64,000 nucleotides of DNA from Clostridia bacterium (GCA_017456985.1 JAFTIH010000031.1:64421-128420); one strand, 5' to 3'. Shown: positions 6,473-49,031, numbered from the stretch's first letter. A program made the numbers and translations. Notes: generated by a model from the sequence alone, not told the origin.

Positions 6473-7308
6473 GCGAATGTAATCATGATTGTAGCACTTG
6501 CAAGAGCAAGTGCGGGGAAGCGGGAGCTGCCGCAAACCCCTTCTACGTTGCCCCCAACGCCCTCAGTAGCGTCAAGCACGTGATCGGTGTCGTCAGCGGA
6601 AAGGGCGGCGTCGGTAAGTCCATCGTTACCTCGATGCTTGCGGTTGCAATGCAAAGAGCAGGGTACAAGTGTGCCATTTTGGATGCGGATATTACGGGTC
6701 CCTCCATTCCGCGCGCCTTTGGTCTGCGCGACGTGGAGATCACGGGCACCGAGGACGGTATGATTCCCCCCACCTCCAAAACGGGCATTGAAATTATGTC
6801 CTTGAACCTTCTCGTGGATGACGAGGCGAAGCCCGTCGTTTGGCGCGGTCCCGTGATCGCGGGAACGGTCAAGCAGTTCTGGAGCGACGTCATCTGGAAC
6901 GACGTGGACTATATGTTCGTGGATATGCCTCCCGGAACGGGTGACGTTCCCCTGACCGTTTTTCAGTCCCTGCCCCTTGACGGCATCGTGATCGTCGGAA
7001 GCCCGCAGGAGCTCGTTTCGATGATCGTGGAAAAGGCGGTCAATATGGCTAAGCTGATGAACGTCCGCATCCTCGGTCTTGTCGAGAATATGAGCTATTT
7101 TGTTTGCCCCGATTGCGGAAAGAAGATCTCCGTTTACGGCGAAAGCGGCATCGACCGTCTTGCCGAGGAGCACCAGCTTCCCGTGATCGAAAAGATCCCG
7201 ATCGATCCCCGCCTTGCCCATATGTGCGATACGGGTACCATCGAGCTGATGCAGGACACCTATATGCAAAACGCTGTGAAAGCCCTTTGTGAGCTTGAAG
7301 GCAAATAA
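6469..7308 (+). CDS. mrp: Mrp/NBP35 (ApbC) family Fe-S cluster carrier ATPase
   Basis: It has the deviant Walker A VVSGKGGVGKS, a CPDCG motif and an N-terminal Cys cluster CNHDCSTCKSKC. An ATGA start/stop overlap links it to the upstream gene. Confidence 0.85.
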   Translation: MSECNHDCSTCKSKCGEAGAAANPFYVAPNALSSVKHVIGVVSGKGGVGKSIVTSMLAVAMQRAGYKCAILDADITGPSIPRAFGLRDVEITGTEDGMIPPTSKTGIEIMSLNLLVDDEAKPVVWRGPVIAGTVKQFWSDVIWNDVDYMFVDMPPGTGDVPLTVFQSLPLDGIVIVGSPQELVSMIVEKAVNMAKLMNVRILGLVENMSYFVCPDCGKKISVYGESGIDRLAEEHQLPVIEKIPIDPRLAHMCDTGTIELMQDTYMQNAVKALCELEGK

Positions 7309-7315
7309 AAAAGAA

Positions 7316-7342
7316 GCGCCCCTCGTCGATGACGAGGGGCGC
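7316..7342. terminator. Bidirectional rho-independent terminator between convergent genes
   Basis: A 12-bp GC-rich stem (gcgcccctcgtc gat gacgaggggcgc) is flanked by an A-run upstream and a T-rich tract downstream. Confidence 0.75.
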
Positions 7343-7358
7343 TTGCGTTTGGTTTGTT

Positions 7359-8309
7359 TTATTGGATATATCGCTCCGTGATATCGAGAAGCCCCTCAAA
7401 GTGGGGAAGCACACAATCCTTGTTTTCAAAGATTTCGGATTGATATACGAATTTTAGATCGAAATTTTTGTCGAGCTGCTCAATGTTAAAATAGACAGCA
7501 TTCTCATGGTTTTCAATTAATCCACTAACGACCGTAATTCGTCGGAAAAATTCAACGTCGACCAAAACGGCCTCGATTTGTCCGACAAAAGAAGGAAGCG
7601 GGGTGCTTTCTATCAAGGAGCGCTTAATTTCGTAAAGCTCCTTTTGTGTTCCAAGGGTATCTTTTCTTGTTCTTAAAGCAAAGAAAAAGAGACCAAAGAT
7701 TGTTGGAAGCTCCAAAAAACACAAAAGCGAAAAATACGTCCAATCCCGATTGGTAAAGTCAGAAAATTCCTTGGATTCTCCTATAAAAGATACGGCTATA
7801 ATGATCCAAAGAAAAGCGAGTGCGATCATGCAAAAGATTAAAATAAGGTTTTTGTTCAGGGTATTCTTGCGCTCGTTTGCCTTGGCTAGAGTGTCTTCCG
7901 TAACGGGACGGGGAGAAAAGGGAAGCTGTTGCTTGATATAGGCGCTGATCTGATAAGGATTCTTTAATCCCATAATATTGTATTTCTTGTCATTGAAAAC
8001 AATGTACAAGGCGTCTACCTGTGCCATCGTGAAGACTACGTCCGAAAGATTCTTCTCGATTTGCCTGAAAAAGCCAAATCTGCCGATGATCTTACCGTTT
8101 TGCACTGTCAAAAACGCTTTAAAATTGTAGAGAAGCGGAATGACACCAAAAGCGCAAATAATTGCAAGCACGGTATATAGAACAGCGATGTCAGCGTCAC
8201 CGAGCTTTCCTTGGGTGAACATATAGAGAAACAATACGGCAAACAAACAAGTTAAAATAAAGAAAACAAAGAATAAGATGTAATGTGTCTTTTTGAAAAC
8301 TGCGGCCAA
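7359..8309 (-). CDS. Hypothetical 4-TM membrane protein (two TM hairpins, each followed by a soluble domain; the first resembles a bacterial PH-like domain); TTG start
   Basis: This is the only long ORF in a strongly AT-rich stretch. RBS TAGGAGGA lies 8 nt upstream of the TTG. Hydrophobic pairs are HYILFFVFFILTCLFAVLFLYMF/IAVLYTVLAIICAFGVIPLLY and LILIFCMIALAFLWIIIAVSFIG/WTYFSLLCFLELPTIFGLFFFAL. Confidence 0.6.
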   Translation of the reverse strand: MAAVFKKTHYILFFVFFILTCLFAVLFLYMFTQGKLGDADIAVLYTVLAIICAFGVIPLLYNFKAFLTVQNGKIIGRFGFFRQIEKNLSDVVFTMAQVDALYIVFNDKKYNIMGLKNPYQISAYIKQQLPFSPRPVTEDTLAKANERKNTLNKNLILIFCMIALAFLWIIIAVSFIGESKEFSDFTNRDWTYFSLLCFLELPTIFGLFFFALRTRKDTLGTQKELYEIKRSLIESTPLPSFVGQIEAVLVDVEFFRRITVVSGLIENHENAVYFNIEQLDKNFDLKFVYQSEIFENKDCVLPHFEGLLDITERYIQ

Positions 8310-20736: not shown

Positions 20737-21491
20737 TAACCAAAAGAATTATACCTTGCCTTGACGTGCGCGACGGGCGCGTGGTCAAGGGCGTGAACTT
20801 TGAAGGACTCGCCGACGTTTCTTCTCCCGTCAGCCTTGCAAAATATTACAGCGAATGCGGCGCGGATGAGCTCGTTTTTTACGATATTACCGCATCCGCC
20901 GAGGGGCGCGCCCTCTTCACGGACGTGCTTCGTGAGGTAGCATCAGAGATCTTTATCCCGCTTACGGTGGGTGGCGGCATCAATACCCTTGACGACTTTG
21001 ACCGCGTGCTCAAATGCGGCGCGGATAAGGTGAGCGTCAACTCGGGTGCGATCCGCAATCCCGCTCTGATCGGGGAAGCGGCAAAGCGCTACGGCGACCA
21101 GTGCGTGGTGCTTTCTGCCGACGTGAAGCGCGTTGACGGCGTGTTCCGTGTCTTTGCCAAGGGTGGCAGAGAAAACACGGGAATGGAGGCGATCGAATGG
21201 ATCCGCCGCTGTGTGGATATGGGCGCAGGCGAGGTCGTGGTAAACTCTATTGATACTGACGGTGTCAAGGGCGGCTTTGACCTTGAAATGCTCTCGCGCG
21301 TTTGTGACGCGGTGAGCGTTCCCGTGATCGCATCGGGCGGTGCGGGGTGCATTGCAGACTTCGTAACGCTCTTTCGCGAGGTTCCCGGGGTGGATGCGGG
21401 GCTTGCCGCCTCTATTTTCCATTTCGGTGAAGTAAAAATTTCCGATCTGAAGCGGACGCTTGATGAAAACGGGGTTCCCGTTCGGATATAA
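20733..21491 (+). CDS. hisF: Imidazole glycerol phosphate synthase cyclase subunit
   Basis: Carries [28 protein letters not shown] and ASGGAG. Confidence 0.9.
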
Positions 21492-21508
21492 GAAAGGATC
21501 ATATAGCT

Positions 21509-22168
21509 ATGTTTGATATCGAAAGCTTGAAGTTTGACGAAAAAGGGCTGATCCCCGCCGTCGTGGTGGATGCTTATACGAAAAAAGTGCTTACCGTGGC
21601 GTATATGAGCCGCGAGAGCTTAAAGATCACGATGGAGAAGGGGCTCACCTGCTTTTACAGCCGCTCGCGTGACGAGCTGTGGTTAAAGGGCGAAACGAGC
21701 GGAAATTATCAGCACGTCGTTTCGATCACGGCAGATTGCGATATGGACGCCTTGACCGTGGTCGTGGAAAAGGAAGGTCCCGCTTGCCATCTTGGCACGG
21801 ACAGCTGCTTTGAAAACCTTTTATGGCAGAGCGACGAGCGTCACGAATTCCGCCTTATGGAGCTGTATCGCTTGCTCGAGGACCGCAAGGCGACGATGCC
21901 CGAAAAGTCTTACACGACCTATCTCTTTGAAAAGGGAAGAGATAAGATCTTAAAGAAGATCGGTGAGGAATCCACCGAGGTGATCGTTGCCGCGAAGGGC
22001 GACGATAAAAAGGAAACGATCTACGAGATCGCAGACCTCGCGTATCACGTTATGGTTCTGATGGTGGAAATGGGAATCAGCGTCGAGGACGTGCAAAAGG
22101 AGCTTGGCTCTCGCCACGTGATCGATCACAAGGTCAAGCAAGAGAAAATGGCGGGGGATAACCTTTAA
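21509..22168 (+). CDS. hisIE: Bifunctional phosphoribosyl-AMP cyclohydrolase / phosphoribosyl-ATP pyrophosphatase
   Basis: [27 protein letters not shown] (HisI) is followed by [25 protein letters not shown] (HisE). Confidence 0.9.
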
Positions 22169-22175
22169 GCCGTAT

Positions 22176-22205
22176 AGCACCGCGCAAAGCGCGGTGCTTT
22201 TTTTA
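22176..22205 (+). terminator. Rho-independent terminator of the his operon
   Basis: Stem agcaccgcgc aaa gcgcggtgct followed by TTTTTTT. Confidence 0.8.
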
Positions 22206-22225
22206 TAAAAATTATCAAATAATAA

Positions 22226-22254
22226 TTGACAGGGAAGCATAGAAATGGTATAAT
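22226..22254 (+). promoter_or_regulatory. Consensus sigma-A promoter (TTGACA-17-TGgTATAAT) driving the TerB/ATPase/helicase operon
   Basis: Reads ttgaca gggaagcatagaaatgg tataat, with an extended -10 TG. Confidence 0.7.
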
Positions 22255-22285
22255 TAAAAGAAGCCAAAAGAAGGGGGGAGAGCAA

Positions 22286-23857
22286 GTGCCAAACGAAAAA
22301 GACGATTTTTGGGATATTTCTTCCTTGCTTCCCCCCAAAAAGAAGCCGTCGGTGAAGCCATACGGCGAGGTGGAGCTCCCGTTTGTCGAGCCCGTCACAC
22401 CGCAAGCGACAAAAGAAGAGGAAGCACCCGAGCAGCTCTCGATGAAGCTTTCCCGCCCCATTCACCCCGCTACCGAGGAAAAAACGAGCTATGAGCCCAA
22501 GGACAACCCCTTGATCACACGGGTGTCCGTCTATCGAAAAAGCGCGCATATGCACATTTTCCACGGCTTTCGTGCAGAGGGCGCGGCACTTTTAAAGGAG
22601 CGCGGCACACCTTGTCCTTACGTTCCGTATTTTTCCTTCGTGCCGCAATACAATCAATTAAATCAGATGCAAAGGGCGTTTTATCTATACTTTCGCGATG
22701 AGGCAAATGCGGGGAATTATCTTGACGTCGGTCAAAGCTACGTTTTGCTTTATATCTTTGAAATTATCAATCTGCCCGAGCATATCCCCCCGAAAATCGG
22801 TGTTTTGCGCTTGGCAAAGGTATGGGCGGCGTACCGCGATAAGATGCCCGCGATCGATAAATATATGATCGCTTGGCTTGCCGACTACGCACTTTTGCAC
22901 GGCGTTTCCTGTCCGCGCGCGATTTTGATGCCGTTTCTTGGGGACATTCTGCAACGCGCGCCCTTAAAGGAGTTTTATCTCGGGATCGGGGAGGAGGAAA
23001 AGGATGGGGTGACGGACGCCCTGCTCCTTTTGACCTCAAATTACAAGTACCAGAACAGCCGTTATGCGACGGGGGAGCACGAGGCGCTTTTTCACACCCA
23101 TATCCGCCAGGCGGCGGCTGCTGTTTTACGCCACGTATTTCTGGACGGCGCCCAAAAGCCCCGCTATCAGACGGTCAAAAAGAAATACGAGGCGTTTGCA
23201 GGCGCGCTTTGGGCGGGAGCATCCCGCTTTGAGCTCTCCGTAACCTATTATTCCTTGACGGGGACGGACGACTTGCGCATTTTAATGACGGCGGTCGTCA
23301 AATATGCGGAAAACAAGCTCCGCGCGCACTTGTCGGTAAAGAGCCGTCTCGCCGTTTCCTGCCTGCCCGACGTTTATCGCGCGCTTCTTGATACCTATTT
23401 TGATGCGGCGCTCCCTTCTCCCACCAAGCAAGCACCCCCACGCCCGACGTACGAGGCGCTTTACGATGCTCCGAGCGAGGGTGTTTCCCGCACCGAGGCG
23501 GCGAAAATAGAGGAAAAATCTTGGGAAAACACGTGGCGCTTGATCCCCGAAGAGGAAAAGGACGAGATCTTTTGCGCCCCCTCGACCGAAGTCGCTCCGA
23601 CAGAACCCCAAGCGAAACCCACGGTAGCAGATAACGCACTCACCGAAGAAGAGCGCACCTTTCTCGGCTTTCTCCTGCGCGGAGAAGAGAGCGAGGCGCG
23701 TGCATTTGCCAAATCGTGCGGCGTCACCTACCTTTTGCTCGGTGAGCGCATCAACGAATATTTTGCAGATACGCTGGGAGACGTCGTTCTTGAGCTTTGC
23801 GGCGACGCGTATTTGCCGATAGAAGACTATTTTGAAGAGATCCGCGCCCTTCTTTGA
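22286..23857 (+). CDS. sngA: TerB-N / TerB-C domain protein (Shango SngA-like); start taken at GTG 22286 behind AAGGGGGGAG
   Basis: A Pro/Lys/Glu-rich N-terminus is followed by YVPYFSFVPQYNQLNQMQRAFYLYFRDEANAGNYLDVGQSYVLLYIFEIIN (TerB-N-like). The C-terminal LTEEERTFLGFLLRGEE..CGVTYLLLGERINEYFADTLGDVVLE is TerB-C-like. Confidence 0.65.
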   Translation: MPNEKDDFWDISSLLPPKKKPSVKPYGEVELPFVEPVTPQATKEEEAPEQLSMKLSRPIHPATEEKTSYEPKDNPLITRVSVYRKSAHMHIFHGFRAEGAALLKERGTPCPYVPYFSFVPQYNQLNQMQRAFYLYFRDEANAGNYLDVGQSYVLLYIFEIINLPEHIPPKIGVLRLAKVWAAYRDKMPAIDKYMIAWLADYALLHGVSCPRAILMPFLGDILQRAPLKEFYLGIGEEEKDGVTDALLLLTSNYKYQNSRYATGEHEALFHTHIRQAAAAVLRHVFLDGAQKPRYQTVKKKYEAFAGALWAGASRFELSVTYYSLTGTDDLRILMTAVVKYAENKLRAHLSVKSRLAVSCLPDVYRALLDTYFDAALPSPTKQAPPRPTYEALYDAPSEGVSRTEAAKIEEKSWENTWRLIPEEEKDEIFCAPSTEVAPTEPQAKPTVADNALTEEERTFLGFLLRGEESEARAFAKSCGVTYLLLGERINEYFADTLGDVVLELCGDAYLPIEDYFEEIRALL

Positions 23858-23874
23858 CGCGGAGGAGAGAAACG

Positions 23875-25221
23875 ATGGAAAACCAAAAGATGATTCCCAA
23901 AAGAATTCTTGTGAATCTGCTTTCCGCCCTTTCTGCGGGTGTCGTTCCGCGTACGGGCGCACCCTATATCGCCATTGGCAGAAACGATGAGATCGCGGCG
24001 CTTTTAGAAAGTATGAATACCGTGGCAGACGGCGGCGCCGCCGTCCGTTTCCTCATTGGACGGTACGGAAGCGGCAAGAGCTTTTTAATTCAGCTTTTGC
24101 GCGGATACGCGATGGATCGCGGCTTTCTTTGTGCCGATGCCGACCTTTCGACCGATCAGCGCCGTCTTTGCGGCGGTAACGGGGCAGGGCTTGCGACCTA
24201 CCGTGAGCTGATCCGCAATCTGGCGTCCAAGGCATCACCCGACGGCGGCGCTCTACCCGTGGTGCTGTCAAGACACTACGCGTCCGTTCTTTCTGGGCTT
24301 GCCGAGCGCGGCGTGCTTCCCGAATCTCCCTCTTTTTCCGAGGAGCTTCGCCGAGAGGTCATCGTCGGCTTTTCAAAGCTGGAAAGCAGTGTGGGCGGCT
24401 TTGATTTCTCGCGCGTGATCTGCGAATATTTTCTTGCTTGTGCCGAGGAGAACGAGGACCGCAAGAGCGCTTGTTTAAAGTGGCTGCGCGGTGAATTTGC
24501 CAACAAGACCGAGGCAAAGGCAGAGCTCGGCTTCCGTGTCAGCGGCATCGTGGATGACGAAAACTGGTACGACTATATCAAGCTTTGGGCGATCCTTGCC
24601 CGCCATCTCGGATATGCGGGACTCATCGTTTATATCGACGAATGCATTATTCTTTATAAGATCGTCAACCGCGTTTCCCGCGAAAGCAACTACGAAAAGC
24701 TCCTTACCATCTTTAACGACGCCCTTCAAGGCAGAGCCGAGGGGCTTGGCGTGATCTTTGGCGGAACGCCGCAGTTTTTGGAGGATACGAGAAGAGGCTT
24801 ATTCAGCTACGAAGCCCTTCGCAGCCGTCTTGCGGATAGCCGCTTTGCGGATGCGGGTTACACGACGCTTTCTTCTCCCGTCATTCGCTTGCGCCGTCTT
24901 TCCGATAACGAGCTGTTCGCTCTTTTACAGCGCCTTTCCAAGCTTTTTGCAATGCAAAAGGGAAGTGAGGAGCTTTTGAGCGAAAGCCAGCTTGAGCGCT
25001 TCCTTGCCGTTTGCCTTGCGCGCGCGGGCGCGTCCGAGCTTTTGACGCCGCGCGAAATGATCCGCGATTTTCTGACCCTGCTTAACATTTTAAGCGAAAA
25101 CCCCGACGCTTCCTTTGAAGAGCTGCTTGTCGGCAAGGAAAAGGAGGAGGGCTTTGCCCGTCCCGCTTCCCAAGAGGATAGCGGGCGCGGCGGTATTACG
25201 CTTTCCGATCTTGATTTTTAA
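23875..25221 (+). CDS. sngB: DUF2791/BrxD-like P-loop ATPase (Shango SngB-like); start at ATG 23875 behind GGAGGAGAG
   Basis: LSAGVVPRTGAPYIAIGRNDEIAALL..RFLIGRYGSGKSFL contains the Walker A. LIVYIDEC is the Walker B. Confidence 0.65.
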   Translation: MENQKMIPKRILVNLLSALSAGVVPRTGAPYIAIGRNDEIAALLESMNTVADGGAAVRFLIGRYGSGKSFLIQLLRGYAMDRGFLCADADLSTDQRRLCGGNGAGLATYRELIRNLASKASPDGGALPVVLSRHYASVLSGLAERGVLPESPSFSEELRREVIVGFSKLESSVGGFDFSRVICEYFLACAEENEDRKSACLKWLRGEFANKTEAKAELGFRVSGIVDDENWYDYIKLWAILARHLGYAGLIVYIDECIILYKIVNRVSRESNYEKLLTIFNDALQGRAEGLGVIFGGTPQFLEDTRRGLFSYEALRSRLADSRFADAGYTTLSSPVIRLRRLSDNELFALLQRLSKLFAMQKGSEELLSESQLERFLAVCLARAGASELLTPREMIRDFLTLLNILSENPDASFEELLVGKEKEEGFARPASQEDSGRGGITLSDLDF

Positions 25222-25233
25222 AAAGGAGCACTT

Positions 25234-27474
25234 ATGACGGCAGATAGCGTTTTTGCGCGATTTCCCGCGTTTCTTCGCGAATATATTTATGCGCATGGCT
25301 GGGAAGAGCTCAGACAGACCCAGTTAGATGCCGCACGGGTCATCTTTGAGAGCGAGGATAACCTTCTGCTTGCGTCAAGCACGGCATCGGGTAAGACCGA
25401 AGCGGCGTTCTTTCCCATCCTTGCGGAGCTTTGCAACACGCCCCAATCGGGCGAGGGCGTCAAGGTGCTGTATATCGCCCCCTTAAAGAGCCTGATCAAC
25501 GATCAGTTTGGCAGAATGGAGGACGTGCTTGCCGAGAGCGGCATCCCCGTTTTTCATTGGCACGGCGACGTTGGAAGCTCTCAGAAGACTAAATTTTTAA
25601 AATCTCCCGAGGGGATCTTACAGATCACGCCCGAATCGCTTGAGAGTATGCTCATCAATCGCGCCGCCGACCTCGTGCGTATTTTCTCCTCTCTTCGCTA
25701 CGTGGTGCTAGACGAGATCCATACGCTGATCGGAACGGATCGCGGCAGTCAGGTGCTCTGTCAGCTCACCCGACTTTCCCGCCTTGCGCTTTGCCATCCG
25801 CGGCGCATCGGGCTTTCCGCCACGATTGGCGACCCGACGCAGGCGGCGGCTTGGCTGGGTGAGGGAAGCGGTAGAAAAACGCAAGCTCCGACACCCCCGC
25901 CAGTGAAGCTTCGCTGGCGTCTCGGAATGGAGCATTTCTTCATCCAGAATACGAGCTATCAGCAAGGCACGCACGCCCCCGTTGACAGAAGTGATGCGGC
26001 GCGCGCGGTTGCCGATGCGGGCTACGAATATCTGTACGATGCCCTGCGGGGCAGAAAAGCTCTCGTCTTCTCCAATTCCCGCGAGGAAACGGAGGTCGTT
26101 ACCGCGACGCTTCGGCAAATCGCCAAGGCGCGCGGGGATGCGGACCGTTTTTTGATCCACCACGGCAATCTTTCCGCTGCGCTTCGTGAGGAGGCAGAGC
26201 TCAAAATGAAGGACGAAGCCTTCGACGCCGTCACCTGCGCTACTGTGACGATGGAGCTGGGAATTGACATCGGAAAGCTCTCGCGCGTTGTGCAGATGGA
26301 GGCGCCGAATAGCGTGTCTTCCTTTTTGCAACGGCTTGGACGCTCGGGGCGTCGCGGCGATCCTCCCGAGATGCTGATGATCTTCCGCGAGGAAGAGCCG
26401 CTTCCCAATGCGCCGCTCCCCGAGATCATTCCGTGGGAGCTGCTTCGCGCAATCGCGGTCGTTCAGCTGTATATTGAGCGGCGCTTTATCGAGCCGCCGC
26501 GCGTCAGAAAAATGCCGCTGTCCCTTGCGTTTCATCAAACGCTCAGCACCCTTGCCGCCAGCGGTGAGCTATCGCCCCGTGCACTTGCCGAGCGCGTTCT
26601 CGGCTTGCCGCCGCTCTCTCGTCTTGATAAGGAAAGTTACCGTGCGCTTTTGCTCTCTATGGTACAAAACGACTATTTAGAGATGACCGAGAACGGCGGG
26701 CTCATCGTCGGTCTTGCGGGGGAAAAGCTGGTCGGCAGCTTTAAGTTTTACGCGGTCTTCAAGGACAGCGAGGACTATACGGTAAGAAACGAATCCGAGG
26801 AGATCGGTACCATCACCAACCCCGTACCGCGCGGCGAGCGCTTTGCACTGGCGGGGCGCGTTTGGGAGGTCGAGGACGTTGACGTCCCCCGCCATCTCAT
26901 CTACGTGCATCCCGTGGAAGGAAAGATGGAGATCTCTTGGCCGGGGGACAGCGGGGAGATCCACACCGAGATCCTGCGCCGTATGCGCGCGCTTCTCTTT
27001 GAGGATACAGAGTTTGCCTACTTAATGCCGAATGCCAAGGCACGGCTTGCCTCGGCACGCCGTACGGCGCGGGCAACGGGGATGGAGCGCTCCTCCTTCG
27101 TGGCGCTCGGCGAGAGTGCGGGGTGCCTGTTTCCGTGGTTGGGAACGCGTGCGTTCCGTACCTTAAAGCGGTTCCTTAGCGCAAACGCCGCCATGCTTGG
27201 GATCAGTAACATCGAGTCCTTCGGATGCTACTATATGACCTTCCGTATGACGCCCGGCGCGCGAAACGGGTTTCTTGCGCGGCTTTTGCACGCGATCGAG
27301 AAAAACGGCATCGACCCCGAGCGCTTGATCCCCCTGTCGGAAACACCTATCTCGGATAAATACGACGACTACGTTCCCGCCGAGCTTTTGCGCCGTGCGT
27401 ATGCCGAGGATCGGATGTCGCCCGACGAGGTGATGCGATACTTCGTGGAAGAAAATAAAGGAAAGGGAGAATAA
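25234..27474 (+). CDS. sngC: Lhr-like DEAD/DEAH-box SF2 helicase with a long C-terminal extension (Shango SngC-like)
   Basis: Motif I is SSTASGKTEAAF, Ia is YIAPLKSLINDQ, II is VVLDEIH, III is SAT and VI is LQRLGRSGRRG. About 300 aa follow the helicase core. Confidence 0.75.
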   Translation: MTADSVFARFPAFLREYIYAHGWEELRQTQLDAARVIFESEDNLLLASSTASGKTEAAFFPILAELCNTPQSGEGVKVLYIAPLKSLINDQFGRMEDVLAESGIPVFHWHGDVGSSQKTKFLKSPEGILQITPESLESMLINRAADLVRIFSSLRYVVLDEIHTLIGTDRGSQVLCQLTRLSRLALCHPRRIGLSATIGDPTQAAAWLGEGSGRKTQAPTPPPVKLRWRLGMEHFFIQNTSYQQGTHAPVDRSDAARAVADAGYEYLYDALRGRKALVFSNSREETEVVTATLRQIAKARGDADRFLIHHGNLSAALREEAELKMKDEAFDAVTCATVTMELGIDIGKLSRVVQMEAPNSVSSFLQRLGRSGRRGDPPEMLMIFREEEPLPNAPLPEIIPWELLRAIAVVQLYIERRFIEPPRVRKMPLSLAFHQTLSTLAASGELSPRALAERVLGLPPLSRLDKESYRALLLSMVQNDYLEMTENGGLIVGLAGEKLVGSFKFYAVFKDSEDYTVRNESEEIGTITNPVPRGERFALAGRVWEVEDVDVPRHLIYVHPVEGKMEISWPGDSGEIHTEILRRMRALLFEDTEFAYLMPNAKARLASARRTARATGMERSSFVALGESAGCLFPWLGTRAFRTLKRFLSANAAMLGISNIESFGCYYMTFRMTPGARNGFLARLLHAIEKNGIDPERLIPLSETPISDKYDDYVPAELLRRAYAEDRMSPDEVMRYFVEENKGKGE

Positions 27475-27477
27475 ACG

Positions 27478-28224
27478 ATGCCAATGTACGATGCGCTTGC
27501 ACCCGTGTATGCCGCCCTCAACGGCGAGGTTTACTACGGTCGCATGGCGGACTTCATCCAAAACGCCTTCAATACCCACTTTTCGGGCGAGGTGAGGGAC
27601 GTTTTGGACCTTGGGTGCGGTAGCGGAAATATGACCTTTCCGCTTTTGGAACGCGGCTACAGTATGATCGGGGTGGACGCCTCGGTTTCTATGCTCAGCG
27701 AGGCGCAAAGGCACCCTCGTGCGGGTGAGGTCCTTTGGCTGGAACAGGATATGAGGAGTTTTGAGCTTTACGGCACGGTGGAGGGCGCCGTTTGCACGCT
27801 TGACGGGATCAATCACTTGCTCTCGCGCCGTGACGTTCTCGAATGCTTTCGCCTCGTGCATAATTATCTCGTTCCGAACGGTATTTTCGTCTTTGACGTC
27901 AATTCACCAAGAAAATTTGCAAGGACGTATGGCGACCGCACCTATATTCTTGAGAGTGAAGATGCGTTTTGCGCCTGGCAGAACGATTACGATCCCGTGA
28001 GAGGAAAATGCTATTTTGATATCGACCTGTTTATCAAGGAGAAGGACGGACGGTATTCCCGTCAAAGCCTGACGATCAAGGAACAGCGATATACCGAGCG
28101 ACAGCTCTTGACGCTTTTGAAGGAAGCGGGCTTTGCGGTACTCTCTGTCACCGATGACTACACGGACGACGCGCCGTGTGATGAAACGGAGCGCCTGACC
28201 TTCGTCGTAAAAGCAATCAAATAA
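27478..28224 (+). CDS. Class I SAM-dependent methyltransferase (small-molecule/RNA type, not an obvious DNA MTase)
   Basis: It has SAM motif I, VLDLGCGSGNMTF, and no (D/N/S)PP(Y/F/W) motif. It starts 3 nt after the helicase stop. Confidence 0.7.
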   Translation: MPMYDALAPVYAALNGEVYYGRMADFIQNAFNTHFSGEVRDVLDLGCGSGNMTFPLLERGYSMIGVDASVSMLSEAQRHPRAGEVLWLEQDMRSFELYGTVEGAVCTLDGINHLLSRRDVLECFRLVHNYLVPNGIFVFDVNSPRKFARTYGDRTYILESEDAFCAWQNDYDPVRGKCYFDIDLFIKEKDGRYSRQSLTIKEQRYTERQLLTLLKEAGFAVLSVTDDYTDDAPCDETERLTFVVKAIK

Positions 28225-28244
28225 CGCATAAAAAGGAAAAAACT

Positions 28245-29141
28245 ATGGAACACGCAACGATATTTCGCGCAATGACGCAGGATGGCTCGGCACGCATTAC
28301 CGTGATCAATTCCCGTGCCATCGTGCAAAGGGCGATTGGTCTGCACGCCCCCTCCCATACGGCAACGGCGGCGCTCGGGCGCTTGCTTACCGCCACCTCA
28401 CTTATCGGGTGCCTGATGGGAGAGAAGGAAAGCACCGTGACCGTTGGTATTCACGCCGACGGTGCCATCGGAAAAATGCTTGCCGTTTCGGATTATTACG
28501 GCAACGTGCGCGGCTATGCGGAAAACCCGAAGGCTGACGTGGCACGTAAGCCAAACGGAAAGCTTGACGTTGGCGGGCTGGTCGGAAACGGTACGCTTTA
28601 CGTCGTACGGGACGACGGTGTTTCTCCCACGCCCCATATCGGCACGGTTGCTCTGCAAACGGGAGAGATCGCAGAGGATATTGCCGCCTATTACGCAGAG
28701 AGCGAGCAGATCCCCACGCTGTGTGCGCTGGGCGTTTTGGTCGCCCCCGACGGCTCTTGTCTTGCCGCAGGCGGTGTGATGGTCCAGCTGCTGCCCTTTG
28801 CTGACGGCGGTGTCGTGTCGCTCTTGGAGCGCAACGCAAGTGCACTTACCTCGGTGTCTGAGCTTTTCCGCTCGGGGCTCAGCAATTATGAGATCGCCTC
28901 GCTTGCCTTGCGCGACATCCCCTTTGATCCTTTTGATGAGATCACAGTGGATTATCTTTGCAATTGCAGCAGAGAACGCATGCATGGAGCTCTTGCCAAG
29001 GTAGGGGAAAAGGAGTTAAGACGGATGTTTGACGAGGAAGAGGCGGAGGGACACGGCCGTGTTCTTGAGCTCTCCTGTCAGTTCTGCAACAACAAATACA
29101 GCTTTGATGAAAATGAGCTTTTTGGCTCGGAAGGGAAGTAA
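28245..29141 (+). CDS. hslO: Redox-regulated chaperone Hsp33
   Basis: It has the C-terminal zinc centre CNCS..CQFCNNKYSF, and its N-terminal body resembles Hsp33. Confidence 0.85.
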   Translation: MEHATIFRAMTQDGSARITVINSRAIVQRAIGLHAPSHTATAALGRLLTATSLIGCLMGEKESTVTVGIHADGAIGKMLAVSDYYGNVRGYAENPKADVARKPNGKLDVGGLVGNGTLYVVRDDGVSPTPHIGTVALQTGEIAEDIAAYYAESEQIPTLCALGVLVAPDGSCLAAGGVMVQLLPFADGGVVSLLERNASALTSVSELFRSGLSNYEIASLALRDIPFDPFDEITVDYLCNCSRERMHGALAKVGEKELRRMFDEEEAEGHGRVLELSCQFCNNKYSFDENELFGSEGK

Positions 29142-29145
29142 CGGT

Positions 29146-30375
29146 ATGACGGTATTACACGGAAACGCAATGGTAGGACAGTCGGGAGGACCCACGGCGG
29201 CGATCAACGCAACGCTCTCGGGCGTCATTCGCGGCGTTTTGGAGGCACGCAAGGACATTCCCACGCTTTACGGATTGAGAAACGGCGTAGAGGGACTCTT
29301 GAAAGAAACGCTCGTCGATCTGACGGCTTTGTGTGCTGAGGAGGAAACGCTCCTCACCCTGGAGGATACACCCGCCGCCGCTCTTGGTTCTTGCCGCTAT
29401 AAGCTCCCCAATCCGAGCAAGGATCCCGAAACCTTTGAGCGCATTCTTGCCATCTTCAAAAAATACGACGTGCGTTACTTCTTTTATATCGGCGGCAACG
29501 ACTCTATGGATGCCGTTGCCAAGCTCACGGCGTATTTGGAAACGGTGGATTACGAGATGCGCGTGATCGGTGTTCCCAAGACCATCGATAACGACCTTAT
29601 CGGAACGGATCACACCCCCGGATTTGGTTCTGCCGCAAAATATATTGCGACTACGATCAAAGAAATCATTCGCGATTGCGCGGTATATACCATTCCCGCG
29701 GTGACGATCGTTGAAATTATGGGTCGCGATGCGGGCTGGTTGACCGCCGCGTCCTCGCTCGCTTCGCTGACGGGAGAGGGCCCCGATCTCATTTATCTTC
29801 CCGAACGCGATTTCTCAGAGGAGTCGTTCCTTGCTTCCGTAAAAGAGCGCCTTTCCGTGCATCCCAACGTCGTCGTTGCCGTATCCGAGGGCATTCGCTT
29901 TGCCGACGGCACGTACGTGGGCGCCGCCGCCCAGAGCGGTGCCAAGGACACCTTTGGACACGCTTATCTTGCCGGTACGGGAAAATACCTTGAGGGCGTC
30001 GTAAAGCGCACCCTTGGCTGCAAGGTGCGCGCGGTAGAGCTGAATCTCCCGCAACGCTGTGCCGCCCATCTTTCCTCGGCGACGGATATTGAGGAATCCG
30101 TGCGCACGGGTCGCACGGCAGTTTCTTTTGCCCGCGCGGGTGTTTCGGGACATATGATGGTGGCGCTCCGCAAGGATGCCCCCTACACGATCGAGATCTC
30201 CTCTTCTCCCGTGTCCGAAATTGCCAATATGGTGAAAAAGGTTCCCGACGCGTACATAAACGAGGCGGGGAACGGCGTGACGGATGCCGCTCTTGCTTAT
30301 CTTGCACCCCTCATTCTCGGCGAGCGTGCTCCCGTGTATGAGTGCGGTATGCCGCGGCATTTCGTAATTCAATAA
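29146..30375 (+). CDS. pfk: Phosphofructokinase family enzyme, probably PPi-dependent type; start at ATG 29146
   Basis: Carries GQSGGPTAAINATL, GGNDS (Asp at the position that is Gly in ATP-PFKs), PKTIDNDL and MGRDAGW. The longer track ORF would overlap hslO. Confidence 0.8.
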   Translation: MTVLHGNAMVGQSGGPTAAINATLSGVIRGVLEARKDIPTLYGLRNGVEGLLKETLVDLTALCAEEETLLTLEDTPAAALGSCRYKLPNPSKDPETFERILAIFKKYDVRYFFYIGGNDSMDAVAKLTAYLETVDYEMRVIGVPKTIDNDLIGTDHTPGFGSAAKYIATTIKEIIRDCAVYTIPAVTIVEIMGRDAGWLTAASSLASLTGEGPDLIYLPERDFSEESFLASVKERLSVHPNVVVAVSEGIRFADGTYVGAAAQSGAKDTFGHAYLAGTGKYLEGVVKRTLGCKVRAVELNLPQRCAAHLSSATDIEESVRTGRTAVSFARAGVSGHMMVALRKDAPYTIEISSSPVSEIANMVKKVPDAYINEAGNGVTDAALAYLAPLILGERAPVYECGMPRHFVIQ

Positions 30376-30376
30376 T

Positions 30377-30404
30377 AAAAAAACGGGCTTTTGCCCGTTT
30401 TTTT
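30377..30404. terminator. Bidirectional rho-independent terminator (first obvious terminator after the 22226 promoter)
   Basis: Reads aaaaaaacgggc tttt gcccgttttttt, with an A-run and a T-run on either side. It sits between convergent genes. Confidence 0.8.
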
Positions 30405-30415
30405 ATTGCGTGATG

Positions 30416-30676
30416 TTAAAGAATATCGTCCTCGCTTAACGAAACGGGGGACGGCTTGGGTTTTGGACGGTATTTGACGGGATCAAAGCGGAAGCGACGA
30501 CACCCATCAAAAGGGGAAACGTTCTTTTTATAAGGGCAAGTAACGGTGGTGTCCTCCGAGTCCTCGGCGGTGTCCAAAAGACGCACGAGGGGCGGTGCTT
30601 CGTTCGCACCGTTGCAAGTAAACCGTGCGTGCTGACAATAGGCGCAAGCACGCGTGATGGGGTCTTGTTCTTTCAT
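30416..30676 (-). CDS. Small Cys-rich hypothetical protein (86 aa)
   Basis: ACAYCQHARFTC..x25..TCPYKK..GCRRFRF suggests a zinc-ribbon-like fold. It is the only sizeable ORF between a terminator and the ylbJ-like gene. The family is not recognised. Confidence 0.4.
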   Translation of the reverse strand: MKEQDPITRACAYCQHARFTCNGANEAPPLVRLLDTAEDSEDTTVTCPYKKNVSPFDGCRRFRFDPVKYRPKPKPSPVSLSEDDIL

Positions 30677-30726
30677 CCTTTACCCTCCTTTTTTCGCTAT
30701 GATTGTATCACACTTTTCTTTTTGTG

Positions 30727-31656
30727 TCAATAACATTTCAAAAAAAGCAAGGAAAGGAAAAAAGCGACCGTCCCGCAAGCAAGCTTGACGGGAAGATAAA
30801 GAGCCGTTGATACGTCACACTCCCGAAGACAGTCCTTTGCCTGGAAATAAACGGAAAGCCCCGAAAAGCAGGTGCTAAACGCACAAAGGGGGAGAGCAAA
30901 GGAGAGGGGAAAAGCCTTGCCGATAAATGCCGTCGCGTTGCCGATCTCTAAAAAAGAAAGGAAAAGCGCGTGCAAAAAGTCGTTAGAAAGATAGGGAGCA
31001 AAAAGAGCGCTGACGACGGAAAAGAAGAGCACGTATGCACAAAGATACAGCGCTTGCATCGCGGCGCCCTGAACGGAGGCGGTAAAGGAAAAAACGGGGA
31101 ACGCTTGCTCGGCTTTTGGAAGAAAAGACGGCTTTTTCCTTTTGCTTTTTAAGAGGATAGCTGATAAAATCGATAGGATAAATTGGAGCAGATAAAGAAA
31201 AACACCGTAGACGCTTGATCCTAAAAGCTGTGCGCCCACAAAGCCGATCAAAAAGAAGGGGCTTGCGTTGTTTGCGGTGCAAAAAATACGGCAAAGCTCC
31301 TCTTTTTGCATAGCCCCCAGACGATGGCACCGCGCGGCACTGCGAACACCGATGGGAAAGCCGAACAGGTTTCCCAGCAAAAAACAAGCGCCGCCTTCGT
31401 CCGAAAAGCCGAGAAGGCGGGCAAAGGGATGGGAAAGGCGAAGAAGAACGCGCCGTGTGCCGCGAAAGGACAAAAGCAAATCGGAAAGAACGAGAAAAGG
31501 AAAAAGCGTGGGGATCAGAACCTCGGCGCACAGAGAGAGCGCGGCGCGCATTCCCTCCGTAACACACGCTATCTTGACAAAGGCAAGGACGAAAAAGGCA
31601 AACAAAAAGAGGGTGAAAAAAAGCTCATACGAGTGTCGCCGTCGGTTCGTCTGCAT
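30727..31656 (-). CDS. Polytopic membrane protein, YlbJ-like / nucleoside-recognition (Gate) domain family
   Basis: The N-terminal GMRAALSLCAEVLIPTLFPFLVLSDLL resembles sporulation membrane protein YlbJ. It has about 8 TM segments and is divergent from yqfC. Confidence 0.45.
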   Translation of the reverse strand: MQTNRRRHSYELFFTLFLFAFFVLAFVKIACVTEGMRAALSLCAEVLIPTLFPFLVLSDLLLSFRGTRRVLLRLSHPFARLLGFSDEGGACFLLGNLFGFPIGVRSAARCHRLGAMQKEELCRIFCTANNASPFFLIGFVGAQLLGSSVYGVFLYLLQFILSILSAILLKSKRKKPSFLPKAEQAFPVFSFTASVQGAAMQALYLCAYVLFFSVVSALFAPYLSNDFLHALFLSFLEIGNATAFIGKAFPLSFALPLCAFSTCFSGLSVYFQAKDCLRECDVSTALYLPVKLACGTVAFFLSLLFLKCY

Positions 31657-41323: not shown

Positions 41324-41379
41324 AGTAACAAATGGTTACTTATGCGATATAAACAAAGAGTTTTCTTGATAAAACTCTT
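41324..41379. other. Two inverted repeats upstream of the operon promoter (agtaac-N5-gttact at 41324-41340; aagagtttt-N6-aaaactctt at 41356-41379)
   Basis: Read directly. The second has a 9-bp perfect stem without a T-run, so it could be an operator. Confidence 0.4.
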
Positions 41380-41465
41380 GCAAATTGTGAAAAGTATTTT
41401 CCTTTTCTCGCTCCAGTCGCCCGCTTTTGGTGAGGCTCTGTCGTGATTTCCAAGATTTTTCGCAC

Positions 41466-41494
41466 TTGACAATTATAAATATATATGGTATGAT
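41466..41494 (+). promoter_or_regulatory. Strong sigma-A promoter (TTGACA-17-TGgTATGAT) for the 13-kb transport/processing operon
   Basis: Reads ttgaca attataaatatatatgg tatgat, about 85 nt upstream of ATG 41580. Confidence 0.65.
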
Positions 41495-41579
41495 ATTGGG
41501 GTAAAAATGGTGTGACGGTATTGTGTCCGTTAGGAAAAGTCCGCCAACTTACAAACATACTCTGGGAGGAAAGGTATTC

Positions 41580-44500
41580 ATGAAGACATGCTTTACAAAA
41601 GCAACTGCTGTCTTTCTCGCTGTCCTGATGCTTCTTGGCGCGATCGGTATCCCCGTTTCCGCGGCATCCGGCGAGACCTCGTACGAGGAAATATTGGCAT
41701 CCTTGACCGCTGAGTCGTATGCCAATTATTTGCAAGGTGCGAAAAACGACGGCGCAACCAAGGGAAATGGTGATATTTCTCTTGATATTTTCGATTACAC
41801 GACGGAGGATATGACCGCCGGCGCCGCAGTTGAAAGAAGGGAAGAACAGGTCGTAGATCTGAAGGACCCCAAGAACCCCGTGGAGAAAACCGAGGAGCTT
41901 CTCGTGCTTCCCGACATCGGCACGGTATCTTGGACTTTTAATATTTCTGCGGCACAGGCGGGACTTTACGGCATCCGTGTGGAATACGTATCGCTTTCGA
42001 ACTCCACTTCTTCGATTGAGAGAAAGCTGTATATCGACGGCTCCGTTCCGTTCGACGAGGCAAGAGCCTTCTCGCTCTCCAAGGCATGGCAGTATAAGTA
42101 CGCCGTGAGAGATGAGGAAGGGAACTACACCTTTGAAACGGATGCGGGCGACAACGATATCCGTGCGGACATCGAAACGGTTCCCGTGCTCCGTACATAC
42201 GAATGCTCCGATATCGACGGCTTCTACAATGAGCCCTTCCAGTTCTACTTCAAGGAAGGGGAGCGCACGCTTTCTTTCGTGGCAAGCAAGGAGAGTGTGG
42301 CGATCAAGTCCATCACGCTGTTCCCTGTAGAAACGAGCAAAACGCTGGCAGAGCGTCTTGACGAGTGGAAGAACGTTCCGAACGCATCGGCAGACAGCAC
42401 GGTGATCTTCCGTGCGGAAACGCCCGACTTCGTATCGGATAAGGCAGTTTATCCCGCAAACGACCGTTCCTCTGCGATCACCTCGCCGATCGAGGCGTTC
42501 TCGCAGAAGATCAACGTCATCGGTAGCTCGGGTTATAATACGGCAGGACAGTGGGCTTCCTACACCTTTACGGTGAGTGAGGATGGCATTTACAACATCG
42601 TCGCCCGCTTTAAGCAGTCCGCCCTTGAGGGTATGTTTGCCAGCCGTGTTGTGAAGCTCGCAAGCTCCGACGGCTACTACGGTCAGCCTGACGGTACCCC
42701 TACCGCTCCTTATGAGGAGTGCTATTACGCGCGCTTCGACTATTCTGACGACTGGCGCACGGAAGCGATCAGCGGTGCAAACTTTACCGTAGATGCAGAC
42801 GGCAAAAAGACCTTTACCGGCGACACCACGCCCCTTTCCTTCTACTTCAAGAAGGGCGTGACCTATACGCTTCAAATGGAAGTTGGTCTGGGTAGTATGG
42901 CAGAGCTCTTGAACGAGATCGAAACCACGCTGACGATCACCAACGACTGCTATCTTGAAATTTTGAAGCTGACGGGCGCAGACCCCGACGAGTACCGTGA
43001 CTACGGCTTCCGTCGTGTGATGCCTGTTACCATTGAGCAGCTCGGTAAGCAGGGTAAGGCTCTTGAAGAGCAGGCACTTTCCTTGCGTGAGATCTGCGGC
43101 ACCTCGGGTGCAAATATCGCAACCCTCGAAAACATCTCCCGTCTTCTTACCCGTATGTACGAGGATGAGGACGAGATCGCTCCCAACCTTTCCAACCTCA
43201 AATCTTATATCGGTACCCTCGGTACCTGGCTCAACAGCGTAAAGGCGCAGTCCATCGTCGTTGACTACTATCAGATCGCATCGCCCGATGCCAAGCTGCC
43301 CAAGGCAAACGCCAACTTCTTCCAGGCATTCTGGTACGAGCTGCGTTCCTTCTTTGCAAGCTTCTTCGTGCAGTACGACTCGATGGGCGTTTCGGATATG
43401 TCCGACTCCGTTGCTTCGATCAACGTATGGCTTGCATACGGTCGTGACCAGTCGCAGATCTGGAAGAATCTGATCACCAACAAGTTCTCGAACAACCAGA
43501 AGATCGCAGTTGACCTTAAGCTGGTTGCCGGCGGTACGCTTCTTCCTTCCGTTCTGGCAGGGCAGGGACCCGATGCCTACATCGGTCTTGCGGCAAGCGA
43601 CGTTATCAACTACGCGATCCGTAACGCGATCCTCAATATCGAGGAAATGCCCGGCTTTGCGGAAACGGTGGGCTACAACCACACCGAAAGCGTTCTCGTG
43701 ACGGATGAGAACGGCAGACCTTATTATGCAACGCAATATTATATGATGGATGATAACGGCAACAAAACGCCCGTTGCCGCATCGAGCATCAATTTCAATG
43801 ACGCTACGATGGTTCCGATCACCCTCTACGGCAAGACCTACGGTCTGCCTGAGCAGGCAAACCTTCCGATGATGTTCTACCGTAAGGACATCCTCGCAGA
43901 GCTTCAGATCGACGTTCCCCAGACTTGGGACGACATTCTGGCTGCGATCCCCACGCTGCAGGCAAACAACATGCAGATCGGTCTTGGCTATGAGTTTGCA
44001 ACGAATATGTTCCTTTACCAGTTCGGCGGTAACCTTTGGAAGTACACGGACGATCCTCCCGAAAACCTCACCGAGGAAATGAAGGCGGGATACCGCGATT
44101 ACGCAGGTGCGGCGATCGGTCTTGATACGGACGTTGCCCTCAACTCCTTCCAGTTCTGCTGCCGTCTTTACACCGACTACTCCTTCCCGACGGCGTACGA
44201 CGGAGCAAACCGTTTCAGAACGGGTGAAATTCCGCTGATGATCGCGGACTATTGCGCAACGTACAACCAGCTGGTCGTCTTTGCAACGGAAATCCGCGGA
44301 CTCTGGCAGTTCAACAAGATCCCCGGAACGGTTCGCGATGACGGTACCGTCAACAGTGATTCTATCGTCACCGTAACGGCAACCGTTATGCTTCACGGCT
44401 GTGACGACATCGAGTCCACCTGGAAGTATATGATGTGGCAGGCAGGCGGCGAGGTACAGGCTGACTACGGTAACGAAATGGTTGCTCTGGTCGGTCCTGC

Positions 44501-44810
44501 CGCAAAATATGCTACCGCAAACATTCAGGGTATCGGTATGATCTCTTGGAGCGCTGCCGAGAGAAACAGCTTGCTTGAGCAGTTCGATCACCTTGCAGCG
44601 ATCCCCAACTATCCCGGAAGCTATATCATTGCTCGCTATACAAAATTTGCTTTCCTTGATGCGTACAACAATGGCGCGGATCCTGTTACGGCAATTCAGG
44701 ATTACATCACCATTATCAACAAGGAGATCACCCGTAAGAGAGCAGAGTTTGATCAGAAGACCCTGAAGGAGGGTCAGACTCCCGTCGATGCTATGACCGA
44801 AGCGGAGTAA
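41580..44810 (+). CDS. Giant extracellular solute-binding protein (1076 aa): signal peptide, about 520 aa with two CBM-like modules, then a family-1 sugar SBP domain; start at ATG 41580 behind GGGAGG
   Basis: The signal peptide is MKTCFTKATAVFLAVLMLLGAIGIPVSA/AS. CBM-like signatures are GLYGIRVEYVSLSNSTSSIERKLYIDGS and GIYNIVARFKQSALEGMFASRVVKL. The SBP core is INVWLAYGRDQSQIWKNLI..LAGQGPDAYIG..WDDILAAIPTLQANNM. Confidence 0.7.
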   Translation: MKTCFTKATAVFLAVLMLLGAIGIPVSAASGETSYEEILASLTAESYANYLQGAKNDGATKGNGDISLDIFDYTTEDMTAGAAVERREEQVVDLKDPKNPVEKTEELLVLPDIGTVSWTFNISAAQAGLYGIRVEYVSLSNSTSSIERKLYIDGSVPFDEARAFSLSKAWQYKYAVRDEEGNYTFETDAGDNDIRADIETVPVLRTYECSDIDGFYNEPFQFYFKEGERTLSFVASKESVAIKSITLFPVETSKTLAERLDEWKNVPNASADSTVIFRAETPDFVSDKAVYPANDRSSAITSPIEAFSQKINVIGSSGYNTAGQWASYTFTVSEDGIYNIVARFKQSALEGMFASRVVKLASSDGYYGQPDGTPTAPYEECYYARFDYSDDWRTEAISGANFTVDADGKKTFTGDTTPLSFYFKKGVTYTLQMEVGLGSMAELLNEIETTLTITNDCYLEILKLTGADPDEYRDYGFRRVMPVTIEQLGKQGKALEEQALSLREICGTSGANIATLENISRLLTRMYEDEDEIAPNLSNLKSYIGTLGTWLNSVKAQSIVVDYYQIASPDAKLPKANANFFQAFWYELRSFFASFFVQYDSMGVSDMSDSVASINVWLAYGRDQSQIWKNLITNKFSNNQKIAVDLKLVAGGTLLPSVLAGQGPDAYIGLAASDVINYAIRNAILNIEEMPGFAETVGYNHTESVLVTDENGRPYYATQYYMMDDNGNKTPVAASSINFNDATMVPITLYGKTYGLPEQANLPMMFYRKDILAELQIDVPQTWDDILAAIPTLQANNMQIGLGYEFATNMFLYQFGGNLWKYTDDPPENLTEEMKAGYRDYAGAAIGLDTDVALNSFQFCCRLYTDYSFPTAYDGANRFRTGEIPLMIADYCATYNQLVVFATEIRGLWQFNKIPGTVRDDGTVNSDSIVTVTATVMLHGCDDIESTWKYMMWQAGGEVQADYGNEMVALVGPAAKYATANIQGIGMISWSAAERNSLLEQFDHLAAIPNYPGSYIIARYTKFAFLDAYNNGADPVTAIQDYITIINKEITRKRAEFDQKTLKEGQTPVDAMTEAE

Positions 44811-45799: not shown

Positions 45800-45800
45800 T

Positions 45801-49014: not shown

Positions 49015-49031
49015 GAAAGGGAGGAATGAAA

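Follow-up and report, generated by a model that had tools for sequence, protein, structure and literature searches.

Genes and transcription of the locus

The window analysed here, the whole stretch of 64,000 nucleotides (nt) from Clostridia bacterium (GCA_017456985.1, JAFTIH010000031.1:64421-128420), carries three co-directional genes, sngA, sngB and sngC, which are a complete and intact copy of the known anti-phage system Shango (SngABC) and are readily identified as such by standard tools. The trio lies between the his operon and a methyltransferase-hslO pair (Table 1). An earlier description made without database searches, referred to here as the sequence-only reading, had reported three tightly packed genes encoding proteins of 523, 448 and 746 amino acids (aa), and an independent gene call on an identical public contig (ENA ERZ28653984 scaffold_111) gives the same three gene lengths. 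The genes follow a single promoter and are separated by gaps of 17 nt (sngA/sngB) and 12 nt (sngB/sngC), with intergenic gaps of 3-20 nt across the operon.

Table 1. Features of the Shango locus, in window coordinates unless residues are given
Feature	Position	Strand	Description
hisIE	21509-22168	+	his operon; directly 5' of the terminator
Intrinsic terminator of the his operon	22176-22206	+	Stem-loop at 22176-22198, then T-run
Sigma-A/sigma-70 promoter	22226-22254	+	Near-consensus, extended -10; TTGACA-17-TGgTATAAT
sngA	22286-23857	+	523 aa, soluble protein; GTG start
SngA DDFWDIxxLxPKK motif	22298-22345 (residues 5-20)	+	N-terminus; motif at residues 5-19
SngA Pro/Lys/Glu tail	to ~residue 60		Disordered, low model confidence, ~50 residues
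SngA core			alpha/beta fold, includes TerB_N
SngA linker	residues 430-448		
SngA C-terminal winged helix	~23640-23854 (residues ~453-523)		Within TerB_C
sngB	23875-25221	+	448 aa, ATG start; BrxD-type P-loop ATPase
sngC	25234-27474	+	746 aa; Lhr-core-type superfamily 2 (SF2) helicase
Class I S-adenosylmethionine-dependent methyltransferase	27478-28224	+	248 aa; Methyltransf_25/23/11
hslO	28245-29141	+	Hsp33 chaperone; HSP33 1.1e-76, NF001033 4.2e-72
pfp	29146-30375	+	PPi-dependent phosphofructokinase; NF010675 1.3e-144; 4 nt after hslO stop

Upstream of sngA, the sequence-only reading had described a hisIE terminator and a textbook promoter, and both elements were found. The terminator consists of a stem of 10 pairs, 8 of them GC, a 3-nt loop and a T-run, and it shields the Shango operon against upstream transcription. 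The promoter shows 12 of 12 consensus matches in addition to the TG extension, and it is the sole promoter-like site on the + strand in 21000-31000. The start of the locus had to be corrected, since the position first given, 22226, falls on the -35 box; it had been chosen because the mechanical list of open reading frames (ORFs) opens at a TTG within that box. The start codon of gene 1 is the GTG at 22286, which is preceded by AAGGGGGGAG and served by the ribosome-binding site GGGGGGAG. The same promoter architecture was found 31-37 nt upstream of sngA in other lineages that carry the trio (L003, L004, L005, L010, L025 and L090) and 58 nt upstream of it in L007, and the extended -10 promoter has been kept in eight lineages, although the genes 5' of it differ. 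When the sngA upstream regions were aligned, the -35 box, the extended -10 box and an A-tract were the only common elements, and no operator-like palindrome was seen on reading these alignments.

Only 3 nt separate the sngC stop from the methyltransferase gene, and the transcription unit therefore probably extends past 27474. No + strand promoter or strong terminator was detected between 22254 and 30375, and this arrangement suggests that a single sngA-sngB-sngC-methyltransferase-hslO(-pfp) transcript is probably produced, with pfp probably as the last gene of the unit in the window genome. In the loci measured within the clade described below, the gap from sngC to the methyltransferase ranges from -14 to +30 nt (10 of 10 loci, four of them with overlapping stop and start codons), and that from the methyltransferase to hslO ranges from -4 to +101 nt. 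The methyltransferase is not regarded as part of Shango, because the methyltransferase-hslO pair is conserved in Clostridia without the trio, having been found in more than 40 such species in an HslO search with one genome per GTDB species. Its best NCBIfam match is a daptide methyltransferase, far under the cut-off, and all its matches are of the small-molecule type; a role as a modification enzyme of a Shango or BREX-like system was rejected on the grounds of this pairing and of these matches. As a separate observation, the methyltransferase-hslO pair (27478-29141; loci L011-L082) occurs in many Clostridia, among them metagenome-assembled genomes of Lachnospiraceae and Oscillospiraceae, independently of Shango.

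The trio had been placed by the sequence-only reading in a core-genome slot, flanked by hisIE and hslO and with host-like composition, and the flanks bear this out. The G+C content is 0.50-0.60 at the locus and 0.42-0.60 over the window, and the genes called up to 10 kb from the trio in both directions are housekeeping genes, with no mobile-element genes. The same reading had called the locus a clean model copy; the source is an uncultured, metagenome-assembled organism and hence offers no easy model copy.

The three proteins and their relation to known systems

The assignment to Shango is carried by profile comparisons, in which the SngA, SngB and SngC models of PADLOC each outscored every other defence family of that collection, over near full length. 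Shango was defined in the literature by the same trio, that is, a TerB-like protein, an ATPase and a helicase (Millman et al. 2022, bioRxiv 10.1101/2022.05.11.491447; Johnson et al. 2023, PMC10250203), and it was demonstrated that the system protects Escherichia coli and Pseudomonas aeruginosa against phages (PMC10250203; bioRxiv 10.1101/2022.05.11.491447). The triad named in the sequence-only reading was therefore recovered, and every motif quoted there was found in the three translations.

SngB harbors the Walker A motif GRYGSGKS (K68) and the Walker B motif LIVYIDE (D255/E256), and among 15 homologues G67, D255 and E256 were invariant, while K68 was present in at least 90%. Its expectation value (E) was 1.9e-157 against the PADLOC SngB model versus 1.2e-41 against BrxD. 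The proposal that gene 2 is DUF2791/BrxD-like was confirmed by the Pfam BrxC_BrxD profile, which denotes the same family and was matched at 1.7e-140 over positions 1-410 of 414, and the score against the NCBIfam BrxD equivalog was 142 bits, with a cut-off of 350. No relative of solved structure was detected for SngB in PDB by sequence or profile.

SngC comprises two RecA domains, a winged helix and a C-terminal domain, and its helicase motifs, namely GKT (K54), DEIH (160-163), SAT (195-197) and QRLGRSGRR (366-374; motif QRxGRSGRR), were invariant in 59 homologues. It matched the PADLOC SngC model at 3.1e-236 versus 3.1e-129 for BrxHI, and it passed the gathering cut-offs of both Pfam DEAD and Helicase_C. 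Among PDB sequences the best match was Lhr of Mycobacterium smegmatis (5v9x, 2.2e-31). The AlphaFold2 (AF2) model of SngC, with a predicted local distance difference test (pLDDT) score of 80.6, likewise found the Lhr core 5v9x as its best Foldseek match over the full length (E 1.1e-28; template modelling score, TM, 0.69), so that the whole 746-aa protein superposes on the four-domain core, and MrfA (YprA, 6znp), Hel308/Hjm and Brr2 followed. The Lhr-like C-terminus attributed to gene 3 in the sequence-only reading was upheld: a weak, sub-threshold WH_Lhr match, the only one in a Pfam scan of this region to E 10, and the full-length Lhr-core fold speak for it, whereas DEAD_assoc was not matched. 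SngC lacks the long C-terminal extension of Lhr, it contains no detected nuclease domain, and in every case it is linked to SngA and SngB. It is not considered an Lhr orthologue, because its NCBIfam scores lie far under the cut-offs (112 versus 1496 bits for Lhr PRK09751 and 211 versus 850 bits for TIGR04121).

SngA matched its PADLOC model at 1.4e-41 (profile positions 81-526 of 528). The protein contains the YVPYFSFVPQYNQ... block that had been quoted as TerB-N, and the assignment of gene 1 to TerB-N/TerB-C holds, as both Pfam matches pass their cut-offs: TerB_N at 5.6e-9 (36.5 bits, cut-off 25; residues 111-206), a partial match to profile positions 48-136 of 207, and TerB_C at 5.2e-10 (40.2 bits, cut-off 26.3; residues 405-520). 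The core TerB domain was not matched in SngA, and a Pfam scan to E 10 found no domain in residues 1-130 and 227-425. For the SngA family, 1835 representative clusters were counted (50% identity, E up to 0.001). The AF2 model (pLDDT 86.5) had no significant fold match in PDB or BFVD, its sole local match being the winged helix of about 70 residues, which resembled the LysR DNA-binding domain with probability 0.95, and the SngA profile found in PDB only a marginal MarR winged helix-turn-helix (E 0.004). To our knowledge, TerB_C has not been described as a winged helix. This C-terminal domain is acidic (isoelectric point, pI, 4.15; 16 D/E versus 6 K/R) and is therefore read as protein-docking, a DNA-binding function having been downgraded for this reason. 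At the other end of the protein, F8 and W9 of the DDFWDI motif were invariant across 81 homologues, and the plasmid-borne SngA proteins of Bacillus thuringiensis (L092) and Sulfitobacter (L176) carry N-terminal hydrophobic, transmembrane-like helices instead of it. It might be that this motif serves as a peptide for binding the membrane or for docking a partner. No transmembrane segment was detected in SngA, SngB or SngC.

Gene content and gene order are the same here as in the Shango systems of E. coli and P. aeruginosa PA14. However, the validated copies occupy variable defence hotspots or tRNA-inserted islands, while the copy in the window occupies a fixed core slot and is vertically inherited, and the accessory or mobile context that is usual for Shango, although not defining, was not found here. 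In the P. aeruginosa hotspot cDHS1, only about 12% of the systems are Shango or BREX. Compared with a proteobacterial plasmid copy, SngC of the window is 35% identical, and for SngA the relationship is visible to profiles only, with no match by BLAST.

A close parallel to the SngB-SngC pair is found in Type-2 and Type-6 BREX, where BrxD and BrxHI likewise are a homologous ATPase and Lhr-like helicase encoded by adjacent genes. A recent study described BrxD-BrxHI as a tightly linked dyad, in which BrxD is an ORC/Cdc6-type AAA+ ATPase and was proposed to be a helicase loader or activator (PMC12839542, 2026), and SngC, BrxHI, DruE and DpdJ have been grouped in a defence-specific SF2 clade (PMC12278908). 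On the other hand, SngB and SngC are partnered by a TerB_N/TerB_C protein and not, as in BREX, by PglX, PglZ, BrxC or PglW, and the genes called up to 10 kb away in both directions include none of pglZ, pglX, brxC/pglY and, for Type 2, pglW. With respect to tellurite-resistance TerB, SngA has TerB_N and TerB_C, domains that accompany TerB in some proteins, but the trio in the window, unlike the ter cluster, has no ter genes nearby, no core TerB domain and no membrane segment. The sequence-only reading had also referred to earlier comparative genomics of Ter-domain proteins (Anantharaman et al. 2012), for which the support comes solely through the citations of that work in PMC10250203 and bioRxiv 10.1101/2022.05.11.491447.

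Inheritance at the hslO site and copies elsewhere

The trio was found directly 5' of the methyltransferase-hslO pair in at least 11 lineages (the window, L003-L008, L010, L025, L090 and L094), whose flank upstream of the trio varies, hisIE being common to L003 only. In a tree of HslO from the GTDB species representatives retrieved, with one genome per species, all trio-bearers fell in one clade; L090 and L094 are two further hslO-linked copies. This clade has 11 members, of which nine carry the trio, one is represented by a cut contig and one, L029, is without the trio, which leaves nine trio-bearers among the 10 members that can be evaluated. The identity of HslO among the trio lineages, at least 11 in number, goes from 95% down to 53%, and sngA, sngB and sngC are full-length in every evaluable lineage. 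The same groups appear in each of the trees built from SngA, SngB, SngC, the methyltransferase or HslO, and concatenated neighbour-joining (NJ) trees of SngB with SngC and of the methyltransferase with HslO, built for 11 taxa, have seven of eight bipartitions in common, most with bootstrap values of 89-100.

The mean pairwise identity was 0.64 for HslO, 0.65 for SngB, 0.64 for SngC, 0.50 for the methyltransferase and 0.40 for SngA, and the ratio of nonsynonymous to synonymous substitution rates (dN/dS), computed on the closest pair, L004/L005, was 0.05, 0.08, 0.09, 0.10 and 0.21, respectively. In the L003-like group the median identity was 0.60 for SngA versus 0.83 for SngC, and the evolutionary rate of SngA is roughly double that of SngB and SngC. 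The single HslO clade, the congruent trees and the low dN/dS values together indicate a single acquisition of the trio 5' of methyltransferase-hslO in an ancestor of these gut Clostridia, followed by vertical descent under strong purifying selection. A transfer of the whole trio-methyltransferase-hslO block was considered and rejected: the downstream hslO-pfk synteny is also present in the trio-less L029, which argues against such a transfer, and methyltransferase-hslO is a chromosomal constant. No trio remnants were detected beside hslO in 70 trio-less species, with matches admitted up to E 0.01. Housekeeping-like conservation at this position, combined with a lack of phage protection, had been named in the sequence-only reading as an observation that would count against defence, and such conservation was found in part, in that 9 of the 10 evaluable clade species carry the trio and it has co-diverged with hslO; L029, on the other hand, is without it. 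A scan of metagenome contigs with HslO gave a best match of 57% identity and no close relatives, and the exact HisIE protein occurs on four contigs, the two places shown both carrying the trio. In L090, a gene directly 5' of sngA (6760-7848, - strand) has a weak nSTAND3 NTPase match and might be another defence-type gene.

Outside this site, SngB homologues are present on 696 plasmids, 542 of them conjugative, and none was found in 50,697 phage records. The trio of a Clostridium estertheticum plasmid neighbours a relaxase and IS110 transposases, that of a B. thuringiensis plasmid neighbours an integrase and an HNH endonuclease, and that of Sulfitobacter lies on a conjugative plasmid. Genomic islands, in some cases tRNA-inserted, hold the E. 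coli copies, and those of P. aeruginosa occupy a variable hotspot (PMC10250203). In the Sng trees, the two copies from Firmicute plasmids (C. estertheticum and B. thuringiensis) form outgroups to a tight chromosomal cluster of gut Clostridia, the distant members of which are solitary trios among housekeeping genes (ireB-ribF, ilvA, ruvAB). For SngC, each of the 8000 candidates scored had E below 1e-20, and identity was at least 63% in all of the best 120. Two more conserved chromosomal sites were noted for closely related trios in other gut Clostridia, one with ireB-ribF followed by the trio (L087, L093) and one with the trio followed by ilvA (L083-L086); the occurrence of the ireB-ribF context in two different assemblies suggests vertical inheritance there too.

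Possible mode of action and alternative explanations

Taken as a whole, the locus is very probably explained as an intact Shango system, predicted to be expressed, that entered the chromosome once and was then vertically inherited, and by analogy with the validated systems this copy would be expected to protect its host against phages. The anti-phage activity of Shango is validated, and the present lineage supplies vertically inherited copies to an unusual depth, from at least 11 lineages. This series separates the constrained parts, namely SngB, SngC and the FW motif and core of SngA, from the fast-evolving candidate sensor, which is SngA taken overall, its tails and linkers above all. Defence systems do not typically show such deep vertical inheritance, such housekeeping-level constraint or, as is probable here, an operon fusion with hslO.

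In the literature to mid-2026, the mechanism of Shango is called unresolved, as the sequence-only reading had also stated, and the role of the TerB-type protein is called unclear. Because SngB and SngC are homologous to the Type-2 BREX BrxD-BrxHI dyad, it can be tentatively proposed that SngB oligomerises and loads or activates SngC on nucleic acid, such as phage replication or recombination intermediates. Lhr has 3'-to-5' polarity and a preference for RNA:DNA hybrids, and SngC, being Lhr-like, may correspondingly track 3'-to-5' on single-stranded DNA and strip RNA:DNA hybrids or replication intermediates. SngA could act as a sensor or adaptor that sets where or when this motor engages, and its tethered FW peptide and acidic winged helix may dock partner proteins or the membrane rather than DNA. 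No recognisable nuclease, toxin or transmembrane domain was found in SngA, SngB or SngC in sequence and predicted-structure searches. Because no killing domain is present, immunity would tentatively be attributed to direct interference with phage DNA replication or processing and not to cell suicide, and models are narrowed towards interference by an ATPase-loaded helicase of the Lhr type. A mechanistic analogue is Hachiman (HamAB), a defence complex that is expressed constitutively and whose SF2 helicase senses nucleic acid or genome integrity; however, Hachiman has a nuclease effector, HamA, to which no recognisable nuclease corresponds in the Sng proteins.

Several points weigh against the interpretation as a phage-defence system with this mode of action. 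The experimentally validated Shango systems are proteobacterial, and SngC is only 35% identical to the proteobacterial plasmid copy mentioned above, while SngA is not detectable by BLAST. The vertical inheritance, the conservation at the level of Hsp33, the solitary loci among housekeeping genes and the probable co-transcription with hslO would fit a housekeeping role equally well. Additionally, the proposed division of labour between loader, helicase and sensor is drawn from homology, and the polarity and RNA:DNA preference suggested for SngC are carried over from what is published on Lhr.

The main alternative, although it is considered unlikely, is that the trio is a domesticated genome-maintenance or stress module, acting in DNA repair, on R-loops or under replication stress in the manner of Lhr or MrfA and expressed together with Hsp33, with defence absent or secondary. 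It is favoured by the single acquisition and co-divergence with hslO over at least 11 lineages, by the conservation of SngB and SngC at the level of HslO (0.65 and 0.64 versus 0.64, with dN/dS of 0.08-0.09), by the packing of the trio with methyltransferase-hslO behind one conserved promoter and by the distant trios that are also solitary among ireB-ribF, ilvA and ruvAB; the 8000 scored SngC candidates (all with E below 1e-20, the best 120 at least 63% identical), the repair helicases Lhr and MrfA as the nearest solved folds and the lack of an effector domain in the trio point the same way. However, the scores of SngC lie far under the Lhr and repair-helicase cut-offs of NCBIfam, the best profile matches are defence families, and plasmids carry the same trio next to relaxase, IS110 transposase, integrase and HNH endonuclease genes, as do E. 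coli genomic islands the trio itself. SngA, moreover, diverges about twice as fast as SngB and SngC, as would be expected of a sensor in an arms race, and the existence of a clade member without the trio, L029, implies that the trio is dispensable there. A wider form of this idea, to which we give an equally low probability, is that in a large group of gut Clostridia the trio is no transient defence island but an old core module, domesticated and co-transcribed with the Hsp33 operon, which serves chiefly to maintain the genome under stress by dealing with replication intermediates or R-loops. If so, the Shango systems found elsewhere would be mobilised versions of a housekeeping machine for DNA surveillance, and their anti-phage effect would be a by-product that stems from the recognition of aberrant replication intermediates. 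In view of the core-like behaviour described here, it may be asked whether Shango also serves as a genome-maintenance module.

The possibility that the locus is a fragment or satellite of BREX, with the ATPase as BrxD, the helicase as BrxHI and the methyltransferase as the modification enzyme, is effectively refuted. The matches of SngB to BrxD (1.2e-41) and of SngC to BrxHI (3.1e-129), the Pfam name BrxC_BrxD and the position of the methyltransferase gene 3 nt past sngC would suggest it, but the Sng models far outscore those of BrxD and BrxHI, the BrxD equivalog reaches 142 of the 350 bits needed, PglZ, PglX, BrxC and PglW are absent within 10 kb, where all neighbours are housekeeping genes, and the methyltransferase is a 248-aa class I enzyme of the small-molecule type whose pairing with hslO recurs in over 40 species without the trio. 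Just as improbable is a decaying or silent relic kept only as the promoter carrier for methyltransferase-hslO: the sole promoter-like site for the block does lie 5' of sngA, so that deletion of the trio would remove it, but the ORFs are full-length in all evaluable lineages, the motifs are invariant in SngC and invariant or nearly so in SngB, and the dN/dS values of 0.08-0.21 contradict it by showing that selection acts on the Sng proteins themselves.

Some further features of the window lie outside the Shango operon. Downstream of pfp, a conserved ORF of 86 aa on the - strand (30416-30676), which has no family match and is syntenic in L003 and L006, lies behind a near-consensus extended -10 promoter of the same strand (30702-30730; TTGACA-17-TGnTACAAT, 11 of 12 matches). 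Two overlapping ORFs of about 1090 aa, neither with a Pfam match, occupy opposite strands at 41523-44810 (+) and 41340-44591 (-), and two ABC-transporter permease genes at 44855-46676 adjoin them. An NHL-repeat protein of 775 aa that also has a Yip1 domain (46687-49014) precedes a protein of 1195 aa (48894-52481) whose match to DUF5696 is full-length (1.1e-140).

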